Source: an uncultured Nitrospiraceae bacterium (lineage in GTDB: Bacteria > Nitrospirota > Nitrospiria > Nitrospirales > Nitrospiraceae). Taken from it: DNA of 32,000 nt. Of this stretch, positions 15,006 to 22,913 are shown one piece after another (within the stretch, counting starts at the first letter, position 1; each line of letters begins with the position of its first letter). Where the stretch lies: the NCBI GenBank assembly GCA_963821465.1, contig CAWGDV010000029.1:392597-424596 (forward strand). Direction: 5' to 3'. A program made the position numbers and the translations under genes. The notes below the pieces were generated by a model that searched no databases, was not told the DNA's origin, and saw only the letters and a list, made by a program, of their open reading frames with translations.

Positions 15006-15806
15006 TTAGTACGGGATCACGTGCAAGCAGTCCTTGCTCTCGTTGTTCCAGACCACATCGCACAGGTTCGACATGCGCGCCACAATCTGCGCCGCCACGC
15101 CGCCCGTCCCGCCAAACAACCCGCACCAGCCCAAGGTCACAAAGCCCCAGTGCAACGGCGCGGCAAAGAGTTCATCGACAAACCAGAACGCATGCCCCCA
15201 CTCGTTGAGTCCCACGTTGGGCAGAATCATCATCGGCCCCACGATCGCCCCCACCAAGGGGAACGAGACCGCCTTGCTGAACTGCGGCAGCCGGGTCATG
15301 GCATACAGATAGCTCGCCACGCCACAGGTGATGTACAGCGGGAAGGTGAAGTAGAACGCGATGATATGGCTGGCGGTGAAGCTCGTATCGCGGATGATCA
15401 CCTGATGCCACGACGCGTCCTGCTCCAGGGTGTAGCTCCCCGCCCAATAGACGCCGAACACGTACAGCGCGAGCCACATCATCCAGTAGAAATACCGCTT
15501 GAGTTCGGTCTTGGGATCCACGTTGGCCACGTTGCGATCCCGCGTGCTCCAAATCCATCCCAAGGTCGCGGACGCGAAGATGATGTTGGAAATCACGTTA
15601 AACCGCCACAGGCCCATCCAGACATTCTCGAACTCCGGCGTCATGGAGTCCAAGCCGTGGGAGTAGCCGAAGACGCGCTGAAAGACGACTTCGGAGCCCA
15701 CCGCCGCCAACATGGCAAACCAGCCGATCTTGAGGGGCCTGGAATCGTACCAGAGCGACATATCATAGCCCCGGTCTGACCCTCCCCACGTTGTTGTACT
15801 CGCCAT
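15006..15806 (-). CDS. amoC: ammonia monooxygenase subunit C (orphan copy, no amoA/amoB adjacent)
   Basis: Long collinear matches to AmoC/PmoC: [84 protein letters not shown]. Confidence 0.95.
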
Positions 15807-15930: not shown

Positions 15931-15999
15931 AGGCCCCTCCGGGGTGTAGGGAGGGGCCTATCTACCTCAGCGGGAGGCGCCGTGCGGAGTCGCGGCGCC
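15931..15999 (-). terminator. two tandem GC-rich hairpins separating the upstream FGE-like gene from amoC
   Basis: AGGCCCCTCC (15931-40) pairs with GGAGGGGCCT (15950-59), and GGCGCCG (15976-82) pairs with CGGCGCC (15993-99). No U-tract, so terminator function is inferred only. Confidence 0.4.
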
Positions 16000-17339: not shown

Positions 17340-18398
17340 TCACGGCCGCTTCATCGATTGCTCAATCAACTGTTGAAGCTCCAAGAGTTCCGCATTCTTT
17401 GGATCAATGGCCAGTCCCTTGGTGACGGCCTGTTGGGCCTCCGCAAACCGTTCTCGTCCCATTTCCACCAAGGTAGCGATGTAGCTGTCCCGAATCTGCT
17501 GTTCGATTTCTGGTGGGGCGGTCTTGGCACAGCGTAAGCCCAAGCCCACGCCGTAGCTGTTATTGAGCGGGTGATTCCAGAACCGGTGCGTCGCCTTGAC
17601 CGTGCCTTCTGGCGCGATCCATGATCCGCCACGAATAACCCGCTTTTCACCAACCGTGAGCCGGTCCACATAGGTGCCGGTGCCACCCATCCATACGGGT
17701 TTTGCCGGACCGGTCGGATTCACCATGGGTTCAAGCTTTCCATAGTAGCGGGGGTCATACCAGTCAGCGACCCACTCGAAAACATTGCCGGCCATGTTAT
17801 ACAGACCATAATAACTGGCTCCCTCCGGATAGGAATCCACCGGCATGGTCGCATCGTGATTCTTGCCATAGTTGGCTTTGGCTGAATCGAAGTCATTGCC
17901 CCAGGGGTAGAGGTTGGCCTGGGGACCACGAGCCGCCTTCTCCCATTCCGCCTCCGTCGGAAGGCGTTTACCGCGATATTCACAGAAGGCTGTGGCATCC
18001 TCCCAATTCACTCCGACCACCGGCTGTTGCGGCTTATTCAAGCGGGGATCGTCCCAGTAGGCAGGGGCCGGATGACCTTTCGCCTTGATGAACTGGCCAT
18101 AGTCCTTGTTTGAAACTTCGTACGTATCCATGAGGTATGCATCCAAGAACACCATATGCGCTGGACCTTCGTCACGTAACGCCTCGGCCGACCAGGGTGT
18201 CTTCATCCGTCGGTCGTACGGTGTAGGTTTTTTACCTGAGTCCACAGGCTCTTCCTTATCGACCCCCATCACCGATGCTCCATGCGCGATGTACGCCATG
18301 TCTTTCGGGATCAAGGACTCCTCCGCACGGACTGGTGCAGGCAATAGTATGAATCCCGCCGCCAGTGTCGCGAGCACAATGACTTGTGCCGTATGCAT
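17340..18398 (-). CDS. periplasmic FGE-sulfatase domain protein with C-terminal TPR-like helical tail
   Basis: Start at 18398 (MHTAQVIVLATLAAGFILLPAPVRA) is preceded by GGAGG. Motifs [25 protein letters not shown] and GLRCAK are present. The tail is ..FAEAQQAVTKGLAIDPKNAELLELQQLIE. Confidence 0.85.
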   Translation of the reverse strand: MHTAQVIVLATLAAGFILLPAPVRAEESLIPKDMAYIAHGASVMGVDKEEPVDSGKKPTPYDRRMKTPWSAEALRDEGPAHMVFLDAYLMDTYEVSNKDYGQFIKAKGHPAPAYWDDPRLNKPQQPVVGVNWEDATAFCEYRGKRLPTEAEWEKAARGPQANLYPWGNDFDSAKANYGKNHDATMPVDSYPEGASYYGLYNMAGNVFEWVADWYDPRYYGKLEPMVNPTGPAKPVWMGGTGTYVDRLTVGEKRVIRGGSWIAPEGTVKATHRFWNHPLNNSYGVGLGLRCAKTAPPEIEQQIRDSYIATLVEMGRERFAEAQQAVTKGLAIDPKNAELLELQQLIEQSMKRP

Positions 18399-18473
18399 TT
18401 CGGACCTCCACCACAAGTTAGTTTTCTGATAGAGCAACCTCGCCGCCTCCACTCCCCCCATACGCAGTTCGGT

Positions 18474-20030
18474 TCAGCGGCGGTGCGGCGCCGCCGTCTG
18501 CCCGTTAGGTATCTTCGCCTTATCGAGGTCTCTCATTTCACGCAACGCTGCTTGTGCGATTCCCCGCAGCATCCCACTAAACACCAACTCGTGCGGCACG
18601 TAGAGCGAATACCAATAGATCTGCCCGATCAGTCCCACCGGATCAAAGATCGCGGTCTGCCGGATCGTCGTCGAAGAGCCGGACCCCGTCACCTCGAACT
18701 CCAGCCATGCCCGCCCGGACAAATGCATCTCGGATTTGAGCCGCAGGCGGCGGTTCGGCTCAATCGCCTCCACGCGAAATGAGTCGACCGTATCACCGAC
18801 GTGAAGGGTCGTGGCAGAAGGCCGTCCACGTCTCAAGCCCACACCCCCTTCGAGCAGGTCGATGAAACCGCGCACCCGCCACAGCCAGTTCCATGCGTAC
18901 CAACCATTGTCACCACCGATTCTCTCAATGCATTTGAAGACGACTTCAGGCGGCGCTTCGACGGTCAACGTCCGCGAATCGACCAGACGCGTGCCGAACC
19001 GCACGCCCCCCCACGACTGCAACTTTCCCGATGAGGAGAGCGCATCGGACCAGCGCGTTGCCGCGAAATGCGTCTCTTCATGGGCTAGAGCTCGGCGAAT
19101 TGCCTCATCGACTCCCATCGGACGTACAGAGAAGGTTGCGAGCGCGGCATTGTCCCGCACCACCGTGACATGGACGATGCTCTCAATAATCGCCCGCCCG
19201 ATGCGAGCGTATAACGGCGTGACCAATCCAAGCCACAGAGCAGACAACCAAGGGGTGAGGACCGGCACGGGGATGATCAGAGGCGCTAGCCCGCGTTGCC
19301 GCCCATACGCACGCATCATATCTGCGTAGGACACTTGGTCCGCACCGCCGACCTCGTATATGCGGTATTTGGAGGTGGGAATCCGAAGCGCTTCCATCAG
19401 GTAGTCCAGCAAGTCGTCGATCGCGATTGGCTGCGCCTTCCCCTTGACCCATCTCGGTGTGAGCATGACCGGCAGGCGCTCCACCAGCGCGCGAATCAGC
19501 TCAAACGAGGCGCTGCCGGAACCAATCACGGCCGATGCGCGAAACTCACACACGGGCAGGCCCGACTGCCGCAAGATATCTCCGACCTCGTGCCGACTGC
19601 GCAGATGTGTCGAGAGTTCCTCTTCGTCGCTGCCCAAGCCTCCCACATAGATGAGGCCCTTGACACCCGCTGCCTTCGCCGCTTCGCTAAAGTTCCGCGC
19701 CGCCTGCCGGTCCGTCTCTTCAAAAGAGCCGGTCGAACTCATGGAGTGAATCATGTAGTAGGCCACGTCGACTCCGCGCAATGCGGAGTCGAGACTCGGT
19801 CGATCAAGGACGTCACCCGCGACAACTTCCGTTGATGGACCGACCTTCGGCTTGAGAATTTCTGGATGCCTGGCCACGCAGCGCAAGCGGTACCCCTGAT
19901 TCTCCAACGACGGCAGGAGGCGCCCGCCAATGTACCCGCTGGCACCTGTGAGAAGAATGAGGGACTTCTCCGGAATTGCCGCTGGGCTCACTGTCGATTT
20001 GCTCGCCACCATGGTTTCAGACGTATTCAT
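18474..20030 (-). CDS. NAD(P)-binding SDR-family protein with C-terminal DUF2867 domain
   Basis: Rossmann motif LLTGASGYIGGRL. The C-terminus GWYAWNWLWRVRGFIDLLEGGVGLRRGR..GRAWLEFEV is characteristic of DUF2867. The ATG at 20030 is preceded by AGGAGG, whereas the GTG at 20048 is not. Confidence 0.85.
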   Translation of the reverse strand: MNTSETMVASKSTVSPAAIPEKSLILLTGASGYIGGRLLPSLENQGYRLRCVARHPEILKPKVGPSTEVVAGDVLDRPSLDSALRGVDVAYYMIHSMSSTGSFEETDRQAARNFSEAAKAAGVKGLIYVGGLGSDEEELSTHLRSRHEVGDILRQSGLPVCEFRASAVIGSGSASFELIRALVERLPVMLTPRWVKGKAQPIAIDDLLDYLMEALRIPTSKYRIYEVGGADQVSYADMMRAYGRQRGLAPLIIPVPVLTPWLSALWLGLVTPLYARIGRAIIESIVHVTVVRDNAALATFSVRPMGVDEAIRRALAHEETHFAATRWSDALSSSGKLQSWGGVRFGTRLVDSRTLTVEAPPEVVFKCIERIGGDNGWYAWNWLWRVRGFIDLLEGGVGLRRGRPSATTLHVGDTVDSFRVEAIEPNRRLRLKSEMHLSGRAWLEFEVTGSGSSTTIRQTAIFDPVGLIGQIYWYSLYVPHELVFSGMLRGIAQAALREMRDLDKAKIPNGQTAAPHRR

Positions 20031-20100
20031 TGTCAGACCTCCTGTCACGACTTGGGCCCTCGGAGGGGGGACGATGCCGCCCCCTCCGCCAGTCCTTCAA

Positions 20101-21068
20101 CTAGTTCTTCTTCATGCTCTTCTTGATCAGATCGCGTGTCGCGAGGTATTCCTTGTTGCCAGGCTCCGCAGCCAACGCCTTCTCGATGGAGGACATCGCA
20201 TCGGCGTTCTTCTCAGCGCCCATCGCGACTAATGCCTGAATGAACGCATCGCGGCCTGCTTGCATGGCTTCATCGGAAACCGCCTGTGCCGACTTCGCGC
20301 AACGGAACCCGAGGCCGACCCCATAGGAGTTATTCTCCGGCTGATTCCAGAACCGATGGCTCGTATGGAGGGAGGTTTCCGGCGCGAGCCAGGAACCGCC
20401 GCGCAGCACCCTCACCGGGCCTTGATTGGCAAAGTTGTAGCCCTTCTCGGCGCCAGGTGGATTCAAGGCAGGGCTCTCCTTATAGTATTTCAGGTCATAC
20501 CAATCCTCGACCCACTCGAAGACGTTCCCTGCCATGTTATAGACCCCAAACCCGCTGATCCCTTCTGGATAGGAATCCACCGGCGGTGGTACGACCAACA
20601 TTCTGCCCATAGTTGGCTTTCTTCGGGTCGAGTGTATGGCCCCAGGGATAATGGTTGTCGCCTTGCGGACCTTTTGCCGCTCGCTCCCATTCTGCTTCCG
20701 TCGGAAGCCGCTTGCCTTCCCACTTGCAGAACGCGCTTGCATCATTCCAATCTACGCCGACCACCGGCTGATCGGCCTTACTCAGTCGAGGATCATCCCA
20801 ATAGGCCGGGGCCGGGTGACCGCTGGCTTTCATAAATTCTTTGTACCGCTGTGTTCGAGGCTTCAAACTTGTCGATCAGATAGGCATCGAGCACGACCTG
20901 GTGCTTGGCTTCATCTGAATGTTCATTGCTCCCCATGGTGAACTCGCCCTTTGGGATCAGCACCATGTCCTTATCGCTGTTCGGCATGTCCGCCGCTGTT
21001 GCGACAGTGATGGCTCCTGCCATCAATGCCACCCCCAATCCGACCTGAAGCACTCTGTAACTCCTCAT
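20101..21068 (-). pseudogene. FGE-sulfatase domain gene (closest to 17340-18398) broken by two frameshifts
   Basis: Homology runs through three frames (ORFs 20793-21095, 20537-20866, 20101-20745). The shifts lie near 20846-20848 (GCGG where GCG fits) and near 20585-20595. A signal peptide, [25 protein letters not shown] and GFRCAK are all retained. Confidence 0.8.
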
Positions 21069-21126
21069 AGGACACCCCCCTTGGTTTTGGAACACCAGGA
21101 CGATCCTGGTTGGTTAATAACTACCA

Positions 21127-21423
21127 CTATGAGCAGTTCGTTACGCAATTGTTTTGATATATTCTCCCTGCAAGCTGAACTGTGGTCGAATCTTGCCGGA
21201 GCTGCCGATTGTGCAGAATGACGGAATCGACAACCTCACCACACTGCACACAGCGTTTCGCCGCAATCTCAGACTCCCCGATGTTTCCGAGTACATCCAG
21301 GCAGAAGTCCTGAACCATGAGTCCGCCGCATCTGGTGCACGTCGATTCATGTTGGGCTGTGGAAGATGCCGTGTGATTCTCGCTCGGTTCATTGTTCGTT
21401 TTCACCGTCAACGCTCTTGCCAT
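21127..21423 (-). CDS. small C4 zinc-ribbon protein, uncharacterised family (paralog of 14403-14726)
   Basis: CTRCGGLMVQDFCLDVLGNIGESEIAAKRCVQCGEVVDSVILHNR. The ATG at 21423 is preceded by TGGAGGT. It is the first gene of the minus-strand train and is divergent from the MerR/B12 regulator. Confidence 0.7.
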   Translation of the reverse strand: MARALTVKTNNEPSENHTASSTAQHESTCTRCGGLMVQDFCLDVLGNIGESEIAAKRCVQCGEVVDSVILHNRQLRQDSTTVQLAGRIYQNNCVTNCS

Positions 21424-21465
21424 GGCTACCTCCATAGGTTTTTTGTTTAATGTTTGTAATAAGTA

Positions 21466-21537
21466 TGTCCAATGTATAAACCATTTTGTCCAATGTGTCA
21501 AGTGTTATTGTAAAATATATTTGACAAACATTAGACA
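21466..21537. promoter_or_regulatory. three copies of a 10-bp box, ACATT(G/A)GACA, overlapping both divergent promoters (candidate operator)
   Basis: TGTCCAATGT occurs at 21466-21475 and at 21487-21496, giving a 21-bp periodicity. The inverted copy ACATTAGACA lies at 21528-21537, a 9/10 match. Each promoter has a box abutting its -35 hexamer, and one box covers the minus-strand -10. Confidence 0.5.
21473..21501 (-). promoter_or_regulatory. sigma70-like promoter for the zinc-ribbon gene
   Basis: The minus strand reads TTGACA (21501-21496), a 17-nt spacer and TATACA (21478-21473), about 50 nt upstream of the ATG at 21423. Confidence 0.5.
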
Positions 21538-21549
21538 TTACAATACAAT
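21521..21549 (+). promoter_or_regulatory. near-consensus sigma70 promoter for the MerR/B12 regulator gene
   Basis: TTGACA (21521-26), a 17-nt spacer and TACAAT (21544-49). The ATG at 21562 follows with a very short leader and no SD. Confidence 0.55.
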
Positions 21550-21561
21550 GAAAATGTAAAT

Positions 21562-22479
21562 ATGAATATTCATAGAATTCATAGAGTTGCAAAACTCACT
21601 GGCCTCTCAAAAGATGTCATCCGGGTATGGGAGCGCCGGTTTGGACTCTTAAAACCGACTAGAGGAGCCAATCGTTATCGTAATTACTCCGATGAGGATG
21701 TCACGTTGCTGAGGTTCCTGAAGGAGCAGCTGGATGCCGGAAGCTCTATCGGAGAGCTGGCGAAATTAGGGCGTGAGGAGTTGTTGGGGCGAGCACGAGC
21801 CAGCGCGCCGCGAGTGTCCTTCGTCGACAATACATTCAGCAGGCTCCTGCGGGAACTACTGTCCACGCTGAATCCCTTCGATCGTGTGATCTTTGAAAAG
21901 CGTTTGAACGGCGCCGTTGCGGTTGTTCCGTTTGAGGAGGCACTTCACGGGATCTTGCTCCCGCTTCAGGAGCAGGTCGGGCAGTTGTGGCATGAGGGCC
22001 ATGTGAATGTAGCCCTCGAACATTACGTCACGAAGCAAATTCAACAGAAGATTTTCTCGGCCATGAATCAGCTCCCAGTCGCTGAGTTTGGCGCCAAAGT
22101 GATCGTGGCCTGCCCGCCCGGTGAAGAACACGACATTGCTGCATTGGCGGTTGCGTATCGATGTCGTGTTCGTGGCTGCCGAGTCTACTATTTGGGGGCC
22201 AACGTGCCCATTGCCTCGCTGACTAACCTCTGTGATAAGGTGAAGCCGGACTTGACTATCATTTCCTTTCCACTCGCGCTTCCTGAAGCCAACGCGGCGG
22301 CGCTGGTCCAATCCCTCACACATGAGGTGGTTCCGGCCTCGCGTCTCGCCGTCGGAGGACATGGCGCGCTCGCCATGCGTGACCTTTTCGTGAAATCTAA
22401 TATTGAGATCGTGGAAGACTTTGCCGACTTGGATGTCATGCTGGATCGATTCATGCGGCAGTCCTTATCCCGAGGGTAG
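21562..22479 (+). CDS. MerR-family regulator with C-terminal cobalamin-binding domain (CarH/LitR-type candidate photoreceptor)
   Basis: MerR HTH RVAKLTGLSKDVIRVWERRFGLLKPTR..RYRNYSDEDV. Wx9EH motif WHEGHVNVALEH at 21988-22023. B12-binding Rossmann segment VIVACPPGEEHDIAALAVAY with His at 22126-22128. Confidence 0.85.
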   Translation: MNIHRIHRVAKLTGLSKDVIRVWERRFGLLKPTRGANRYRNYSDEDVTLLRFLKEQLDAGSSIGELAKLGREELLGRARASAPRVSFVDNTFSRLLRELLSTLNPFDRVIFEKRLNGAVAVVPFEEALHGILLPLQEQVGQLWHEGHVNVALEHYVTKQIQQKIFSAMNQLPVAEFGAKVIVACPPGEEHDIAALAVAYRCRVRGCRVYYLGANVPIASLTNLCDKVKPDLTIISFPLALPEANAAALVQSLTHEVVPASRLAVGGHGALAMRDLFVKSNIEIVEDFADLDVMLDRFMRQSLSRG

Positions 22480-22496: not shown

Positions 22497-22913
22497 ATGA
22501 CGCAATACCCGCTCACCGTATTCTTCGACGGAGCCTGTCCTATTTGCGATCGAGAGATTGCGCTCATGAAACGGTTAGACCGGCGGAGACAATTGGAATT
22601 CTGCGACTTCTCGAACCGGGAATATAATGCGGCATCCAGCGGCTTTACCGCCGCGGATCTAGGCACAGTGATTCACGCCCGCTGGGCGGACGGGTCCGTC
22701 ATCACCGGTGTCGAGGTGTTCCGAGCCATGTGGGAGGCTGTCGGTCTGGGAGTCCTCGCGAGGTTGAGCCGTCTTTCGTTAGTCGACCCACTCGTCTTGA
22801 GAACCTATGCATGGTTCGCACGTAACCGCCTGCGGCTGACCGGTCGTCTGAAGGCATGCACGGGAGACGCCTGTGCCTCACACCCCTCCAAGCCAATTGA
22901 CGTCGTGAGATAG
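22497..22913 (+). CDS. DUF393 / DCC-family thiol-disulfide oxidoreductase-like protein
   Basis: N-terminal FFDGACPICDREIA (DGxCxxC) and a length of 138 aa fit DUF393. It starts 17 nt after the regulator gene. Confidence 0.8.
   Translation: MTQYPLTVFFDGACPICDREIALMKRLDRRRQLEFCDFSNREYNAASSGFTAADLGTVIHARWADGSVITGVEVFRAMWEAVGLGVLARLSRLSLVDPLVLRTYAWFARNRLRLTGRLKACTGDACASHPSKPIDVVR

Follow-up and report, generated by a model that had tools for sequence, protein, structure and literature searches.

The experimentally derived DNA repeat of CarH, the adenosylcobalamin (AdoCbl)-dependent photoreceptor and repressor, is an 11-bp unit, nnnnTnnACAn, that usually occurs in tandem and often has a TTGACA -35 hexamer embedded in one of its copies, and the known operators include cases of divergent-promoter control and mixtures of full and pseudo-repeats (PMC9304148). 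Here we describe a candidate operator of this kind in a 32,000-bp stretch of DNA (hereafter, the window) from an uncultured Nitrospiraceae bacterium (assembly GCA_963821465.1, contig CAWGDV010000029.1, positions 392,597 to 424,596), where a gene for a CarH/LitR-type regulator (carH) and a gene for a small zinc-ribbon protein diverge from a 138-bp intergenic region. An earlier note on this DNA had recognized two back-to-back promoters and three copies of a 10-bp box, had proposed that the regulator occludes both promoters and would thereby control its own gene as well as the zinc-ribbon/FGE-like gene train on the other strand, and had suspected a distinct operator, as the box did not seem to match the published CarH repeat. 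Our analysis supports the first of these proposals, based on the placement of the repeats over both promoters, their conserved sequence and spacing, their co-occurrence with carH and the CarH signature motifs of the regulator. That is, the region is probably the operator of the adjacent CarH-type repressor and would mediate repression of both divergent promoters in the dark. The second proposal needs correction, since the box does fit nnnnTnnACAn (PMC9304148) and the plus-strand half of the region resembles the carH operator region of Thermus thermophilus; the operator thus appears to be not a distinct type but a set of known CarH units in an unusual arrangement.

Several described systems can be compared with the region. 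The operator of T. thermophilus, on the megaplasmid, likewise occupies a divergent intergenic region beside carH (crtB-carH), where the sequence just before carH reads gaaaTgtACAa aaacTtgACAa aaccTatACgt; the carH-side TTGACA -35 lies inside one repeat and the spacer holds another, 11 bp further on. The leader of carH is very short as well, and the regulator has matching domain order and motifs. In contrast to the Nitrospira region, however, the Thermus operator consists of three contiguous same-strand repeats bound by one tetramer (PMC9304148), whereas the Nitrospira region combines two contiguous carH-side repeats with four opposite-strand ones offset by 9, 21 and 22 bp, so that its arms are inverted, and its target genes are not carotenoid genes. 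The CarH operators of the myxobacterial Sorangiineae and Nannocystineae also lie between divergent genes and are expected to control both promoters (PMC9304148), but they are contiguous one-strand 11-bp arrays with carotenoid targets, unlike the strong Nitrospira repeats, which alternate with non-repeat DNA at a two-turn spacing. In Bacillus megaterium, an AdoCbl-bound CarH tetramer sits on repeats that overlap the -35 or the -10, and the account of that work given in PMC9304148 has four contiguous tandem repeats and describes no inverted arm, unlike the region studied here. Inverted-repeat elements around a -35 are found in the palindromic sites of the Myxococcus xanthus CarA operator at the crt promoter, and the CarA DNA-binding domain, which carries RxWERRY, belongs to the same family as that of the Nitrospira regulator; CarA, however, is B12-independent, is without the Trp of the Wx9EH motif that is intact in Nitrospira, and needs the antirepressor CarS. 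Finally, classical MerR-family regulators (MerR, CueR) have the MerR-family DNA-binding domain of the Nitrospira regulator in common, yet they activate from a single palindrome in an over-long 19-20-bp spacer, as opposed to the multiple repeats and 17-bp spacers seen here.

Repeat units and promoters of the divergent region

The features of the region are given below, with the rightward (carH) promoter written P(+), the leftward one P(-), and scores in bits from a weight matrix that was built from related loci and run over the whole genome. Both promoters are predictions from the sequence.

21424-21561, no strand: divergent intergenic region, 138 bp and 73% A+T (the window is 57% G+C), with the whole candidate operator inside
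21444-21453, minus: box 0, ACATTAAACA, degenerate copy within the predicted zinc-ribbon 5' leader; 20.5 bits
21466-21475, minus: box 1, ACATTGGACA (plus strand TGTCCAATGT); 22.8 bits
21473-21478, minus: candidate P(-) -10, TATACA, by direct reading; also fits the repeat core TnnACA
21487-21496, minus: box 2, ACATTGGACA (plus strand TGTCCAATGT), inside the P(-) spacer; 21.8 bits
21496-21505, minus: box-like unit ACACTTGACA with the P(-) -35, TTGACA (21501-21496); 15.8 bits
21508-21516, no strand: inter-arm spacer, variable in sequence, fixed in length
21517-21527, plus: 11-bp repeat ATATTTGACAA with the P(+) -35, TTGACA (21521-21526), which fits nnnnTnnACAn; 19.7 bits
21528-21538, plus: box 3, ACATTAGACA as a 10-mer (21528-21537) and ACATTAGACAT as an 11-bp repeat, in the P(+) spacer; 21.6 bits
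21544-21549, plus: P(+) -10, TACAAT; predicted start at about 21556, leader of 5-6 nt

Direct reading finds boxes 1, 2 and 3 exactly where they had been reported, and the two promoters with their 17-bp spacers, the 19 bp between the -35 hexamers, the start-to-start (and hence centre-to-centre) distances of 21 bp between boxes 1 and 2 and 41 bp between boxes 2 and 3, and the AT-rich character of the 138-bp region all hold. The earlier list of three boxes was incomplete, however: box 0 is a fourth, located 22 bp past box 1, and both -35 hexamers are within box-like units. Similarly, box 1 had been said to cover the P(-) -10, which is correct for an overlap of 3 bp only, and the box mainly covers the predicted P(-) start site, which is expected near 21466.

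Boxes 1, 2 and 3 read ACATT[G/A]GACA; position 5 is T and positions 8-10 are ACA, as in nnnnTnnACAn, and position 2 is C vs. the A of the Thermus form nAnnTnnACAn. On the plus strand, the repeat ATATTTGACAA, which includes the box-like 10-mer ATATTTGACA (21517-21526) holding the P(+) -35, is followed exactly 11 bp on by ACATTAGACAT, making a true 11-bp tandem pair, and this plus-strand half (ATATTTGACAAACATTAGACA) has 14 of 21 bases in common with its T. thermophilus counterpart (AAACTTGACAAAACCTATACG). The minus-strand cores are TTGACA at 21501, TGGACA at 21492, TGGACA at 21471 and TAAACA at 21449 (offsets of 9, 21 and 22 bp), with TATACA at 21478 as a further core fit; the first ACA of box 2 is common to that box and the P(-) -35 unit. 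The two arms are mutually inverted, with TGTCCAATGTGTCAA and TTGACAAACATTAGACA separated by a 19-bp spacer. Both TTGACA hexamers are therefore within repeat-like units, boxes 2 and 3 occupy the 17-bp spacers, box 1 lies over the -10/start site of P(-), and the site as a whole spans 25-118 bp upstream of carH.

P(+) (TTGACA-17-TACAAT, 21521-21549) matches at 11 of 12 positions and is the top promoter-like site of the scanned region, while P(-) (TTGACA-17-TATACA, 21501-21473) was not listed by the promoter scan because its -10 ends in A. As both spacers are 17 bp, the arrangement is suited to repression by occlusion, and classical MerR-type activation by spacer distortion was rejected on the same grounds. 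The predicted carH mRNA has a leader of about 5-6 nt without a Shine-Dalgarno sequence (window 21550-21561), and translation of CarH may start on a leaderless or near-leaderless mRNA. Across related loci, the distance from the -35 to the carH ATG is 39-43 nt in 81 of 88, and it is 35 nt for T. thermophilus carH (L121, 1160-1190).

The regulator and the proposed light switch

The product of the gene to the right of the repeats has the domains and motifs expected of the family.

21562-22479, plus: CarH/LitR class I-type regulator (MerR winged helix, B12-binding four-helix bundle, Rossmann domain), ATG at 21562

The 305-aa protein contains the domains MerR_1 (E 9e-16), B12-binding_2 and B12-binding, and residues 3-269 align with the TtCarH/LitR structures 5c8d and 3whp (E about 1e-27). 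Its recognition helix is RVWERRF (RxWERRY in PMC9304148), and the Wx9EH motif, which provides the adenosyl cap in the four-helix bundle, is intact, with W-HEGHVNVAL-EH aligning to the TtCarH motif. The family B12 motif is D/ExHx2G/P-x41-SxT/V-x22-27-GG with the lower-axial His (PMC9304148); the regulator has EEHDIA (in PPGEEHDIA), 41 residues, SFP, 27 residues and GG, so that the lower-axial His and the spacings match. All of 77 Nitrospira homologues keep Wx9EH, the lower-axial His and an R.WE[RK]R[YF] recognition helix. The genome also encodes PduO-type and CobA-type adenosyltransferases and hence AdoCbl can be made from cobalamin.

Binding, oligomeric state, the units contacted, transcription starts and light-dependent derepression are what we infer in the following model. 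In the dark, AdoCbl-bound CarH oligomers, which would be tetramers by analogy with Thermus and Bacillus CarH, would bind 11-bp units of the type ACATTrGACAn. The two tandem units over the -35 and spacer of the carH promoter would then bring about autorepression of carH together with the DCC1-like gene that follows it, and the four opposite-strand units (offsets 9, 21 and 22 bp), which extend from the P(-) -35 through the spacer and -10/start site into the early leader, would keep the zinc-ribbon/FGE-like train repressed. Upon exposure to UV, blue or green light, cleavage of the Co-C bond would cause the oligomer to dissociate, leaving both promoters open.

Conservation of the candidate operator and competing explanations

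To assess conservation, we compared 61 related genomes and 76 further loci from public Nitrospira assemblies, with spacings counted over 88 unique upstream sequences and information content, in bits per column, calculated over the 46 unique loci with canonical spacing. The related loci stem from Nitrospira genomes and MAGs, and the records with a homologous locus include those of strains NS4, BLG_1 and LAS72. The regulator forms two paralogue clades among the 61 genomes, sharing 80-89% and 53-57% identity, respectively, with the protein described here, and conservation of the upstream region is striking, in both clades and to an equal degree in the 76 public loci. The distance between boxes 1 and 2 is 21 bp in 67 of the 88 sequences (22 bp in 11, 20 bp in 4), that between boxes 2 and 3 is 41 bp in 65 (40 bp in 9, 42 bp in 7), and the -35 hexamers are 25 bp apart, start to start, in 65 (24 or 26 bp in 16 more). 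TATACA stands 17 bp from the P(-) -35 in 57/88 loci, and a P(+) -10 of the form TAnnnT (chiefly TATAAT, TACAAT or TAGAAT) follows its -35 by 16-18 bp, mostly 17, in 79/88. Boxes 1, 2 and 3 carry 1.75, 1.79 and 1.66 bits per column, respectively, the -35 hexamers 1.97 (GTCAA of the P(-) unit being nearly invariant) and the 11-bp repeat with the P(+) -35 (21517-21527) 1.7-2.0; outside the boxes, the values are 0.70 for the inter-arm spacer, 0.54 between box 3 and the -10, and 0.34 for the leader. Box 0 is more weakly conserved (1.33 bits) and reads TGTCCAATGT or TGTTCAATGT in many relatives.

Genuine 11-bp tandem arrays are present in several relatives (L020, L006, L058 and L022). In L020, TGTCCAATGTA is directly followed by TGTCTAATGTA; L058 has three units in a row; and L022 (G058:C1, about 3096700-3096920), which belongs to another family of the order and encodes a homologue of 47% identity, has TGTATTATGTT TGTATAATGTT TGTCTGTTGTT plus a second pair upstream. 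Homologues of about 30% identity (L025-L027) directly follow a ybgA-like gene with no intergenic operator, and are thus uninformative. Between the two paralogue clades, the recognition-helix region is 87% identical, compared to about 54% for the whole proteins, a pattern that fits a DNA target common to both. This genome has one copy of the regulator. Some genomes have both clades (G004:C57 with three copies, G035:C226, G014:C3, G030, G010), in which case the same operator and a divergent zinc-ribbon/FGE unit go with each paralogue, and the sets sometimes stand 8-20 kb from each other on a single contig; such coexistence would imply cross-regulation or heteromeric control.

The operator also co-occurs with carH. 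The pattern TGTCYAATGTGTCAA, with at most one mismatch, is found 60-75 bp upstream of the CarH homologue in all 21 same-genus genomes that have one, and 15 same-genus genomes without CarH yield only two one-mismatch matches, one of them a tRNA promoter and the other an isolated site, with many of these CarH-less genomes being incomplete and the related genomes not independent of each other. We take this co-occurrence as supporting evidence, not proof.

The 32-kb window contains exact matches to ACATTRGACA at boxes 1, 2 and 3 and nowhere else, and the 4.6-Mb genome contains nine, vs. about 11 expected from base composition; three of these nine fall within 72 bp, in the operator, and of the other six, four fall in long open frames and two stand alone as single boxes. 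When the 138-bp region was simulated 1000 times with a Markov model, a 10-mer family with at least four members appeared in 3 runs. Nowhere else in the genome do four or more TnnACA cores follow each other on one strand at intervals of one or two helical turns, or do strong weight-matrix matches form a cluster (seven here, at 13-23 bits), and no second operator was found in this genome by exact-pattern, weight-matrix or TnnACA-chain scans.

Several observations weigh against assigning the region to CarH. Characterized CarH operators are contiguous 11-bp tandem arrays, usually of 3-5 full or pseudo-units, but the minus-strand repeats are spaced apart, with at most weak pseudo-repeats in the intervals, and the two arms are inverted with respect to each other; the B12 motif of the regulator deviates slightly at two positions (A for G/P, P for T/V); TATACA is a weak -10 for P(-), as it is without the highly conserved final T; and the related genomes on which the conservation values are based are not independent samples. 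Further, the zinc-ribbon gene accompanies the operator nearly as faithfully as carH does (70/76 loci), and thus co-occurrence alone cannot assign the boxes to CarH. Alternatively, therefore, the boxes might be bound by another regulator, be it the zinc-ribbon protein or an unlinked transcription factor, with CarH acting elsewhere or indirectly, and the 21/22-bp minus-strand spacing and inverted arm, which do not form a canonical contiguous CarH array, would be in line with this. We consider this unlikely. The sequence of the unit agrees with the CarH repeat, the plus-strand half resembles the operator region of Thermus, and the operator persists where no zinc-ribbon homologue was detected (e.g., L046 and L095). 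In addition, no part of CarH is better conserved between the two paralogue clades, both of which have the box, than its recognition helix, and a more distant CarH homologue has the same box in canonical 11-bp tandem arrays.

It is also conceivable that no repressor site is present and that the conserved blocks reflect only two strong divergent promoters, with their -35, -10 and UP-like or discriminator sequences and their leader elements. Two of the repeat-like units are, after all, simply -35 hexamers, and a tRNA promoter of the relatives (TTGACACATTGGGCA) illustrates that part of a box can accompany a -35 with no link to carH. Spacers normally vary, however, and boxes 2 and 3, which occupy them, are conserved like hexamers; the 10-mer recurs four times in two orientations; and the 11-bp tandem arrays of the relatives stand outside any hexamer, all of which makes this explanation very unlikely. 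The least probable reading, and an extremely unlikely one, takes the boxes for sites of LexA (SOS) or another stress regulator that would control downstream UV-repair genes: a photolyase and a Y-family polymerase gene are indeed located within the window, but no box was found upstream of either, and the boxes are non-palindromic, mostly direct repeats, without a CTGT-N8-ACAG or GAAC-N4-GTTC pattern, which led us to reject a LexA/SOS box. Hence, we favor the hypothesis that the region is the operator of the adjacent CarH.

A number of look-alike sites were encountered during these scans. The recurrent TGCCCAATGTGTCAA of the relatives was rejected as an operator because it is a tRNA gene promoter; this promoter (L111, L113 and L114, from G001, G012 and G008, and also G003, G004 and G022) reads TTGACACATTGGGCA-...-TATATT and has its -35 and CATTGG in common with the minus-strand operator arm, with the final ACA absent. 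Extra pattern matches in G030, G018 and G027 are single boxes without operator architecture. At about 1543 of L116 and 1490 of L117 (G030:C53 and G018:C30), a conserved strong promoter, TTGACAGATTGGACA-...-TATAAT, with a single box in its spacer, precedes a gene for a 209-aa protein in these two relatives; it might be a single-repeat member of the regulon, and no equivalent was found in this genome. Here, the strong lone boxes at C12:196944, C9:17725 and C1:5034 have neither partner boxes nor a clear promoter context and are unexplained singletons. The match at C16:201672 (TGTCCAATGCGTCAA) was judged a chance resemblance in a mobile-element promoter; the surrounding 201640-201700 is a compact divergent promoter region with one box (TTGACGCATTGGACA) between two small ribbon-helix-helix-like genes, with an integrase adjoining. 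Short arrays with a 7-bp period (AACATTG, AACATTC, AATATTG) cross-match the box matrix at C2:70575-70790, C21:7377, C10:573934, C10:327160 and C1:341396, and are unrelated to the operator.

Flanking genes and possible targets of light control

The genes next to the operator, other than carH, are the following.

22497-22913, plus: DCC1-like thiol-disulfide oxidoreductase, 17 bp after carH
21127-21423, minus: small zinc-ribbon protein, first P(-) gene; ATG at 21423-21421, Shine-Dalgarno GGAGGT
17340-21095, minus: start of the P(-) train, i.e., FGE-like (frameshifted), DUF2867/NmrA reductase and FGE-like genes, with gaps of 12-52 bp

The DCC1-like gene, which is probably co-transcribed with carH from P(+), follows carH in 32 of the 76 related loci, most of which belong to the regulator's own clade, and the order zinc-ribbon then FGE-like gene is kept in 65 of 76. 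Beyond the first FGE-like gene, the co-directional minus-strand train comprises a DUF2867/NmrA protein, two more FGE-like genes, amoC, a DUF1731 SDR, a photolyase and a DUF1722/ybgA-like gene. The first FGE-like gene (20101-21095, minus) is present as three overlapping frames (20793-21095, 20537-20866 and 20101-20745) and is either a frameshifted pseudogene or an assembly error; in relatives, the N- and C-terminal FGE-like parts are close together on one strand, as for a single gene. The train also contains gaps of 205 and 269 bp, the latter lying before amoC and holding a GC-rich hairpin (about 15935-15965, minus; GGCCCCTCC-ctacacc-CCGGAGGGGCC) that could be a terminator or attenuator separating amoC from the upstream FGE-like genes.

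The earlier note had suggested scanning the genome for a regulon, especially upstream of phr and amoC. No operator was found there: genome scans gave no box upstream of phr, amoC, the polymerase gene or a second zinc-ribbon gene. Consequently, any light control of amoC or phr through this operator must be by read-through. In favour of a CarH operator, the neighbours include typical light-stress genes, namely those for photolyase, the ybgA-like DUF1722 protein, SDRs and the DCC1-like protein.

The genome carries five full-length amoC copies, and is therefore of the comammox type. While the CarH cassette is genus-wide, a spare amoC recurs beside it in comammox genomes (here at 15006-15806 of the window), in three arrangements: it can follow the zinc-ribbon gene directly, it can be located downstream of carH, whether or not the DCC1-like gene is present, or, as in this window, it can stand about 5 kb down the minus-strand train. 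Among the sampled genomes having both genes, amoC lies within about 6 kb of the operator and on an operator-driven strand in 4 of 11, and it lies within 3 kb in 11 of 76 public loci; the loci with amoC beside the cassette are L032, L034, L038, L043, L057, L062-L064, L067, L089 and L095, along with G011:C57, G018:C18, G018:C14 and G030:C23. This recurrent recruitment of amoC to the CarH cassette looks non-random. It is intriguing to hypothesize that an undescribed CarH binding mode operates at this region and, at the same time, that in comammox lineages a spare amoC came under light control via the CarH switch. We regard this combined proposal as doubtful, though less so than any of the competing explanations of the boxes discussed above. 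The undescribed mode would be required by strong repeats two turns apart on one strand plus an inverted tandem pair at a fixed 41 bp, for example with one oligomer bridging both promoters or two oligomers cooperating. If true, light control of amoC would offer a way to repair ammonia monooxygenase that light has inactivated.

That light inhibits nitrifiers has been known for decades, and this photoinhibition has recently been quantified for the comammox bacterium Nitrospira inopinata (PMC9797979). Our literature search found no light sensor or light regulon described for Nitrospira, and no paper linking CarH/LitR to the genus. The CarH operator is well known as a kind of system; what is unusual here is the two-turn spacing and the inverted arm, and such a mixed direct and inverted layout adds to the known CarH operator designs. 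The candidate switched-on genes are those for the periplasmic FGE-like proteins, the zinc-ribbon protein and the reductases, and possibly the photolyase and the spare amoC. With a defined regulator and a genus-wide operator at hand, B12-based light sensing in Nitrospira becomes directly testable.

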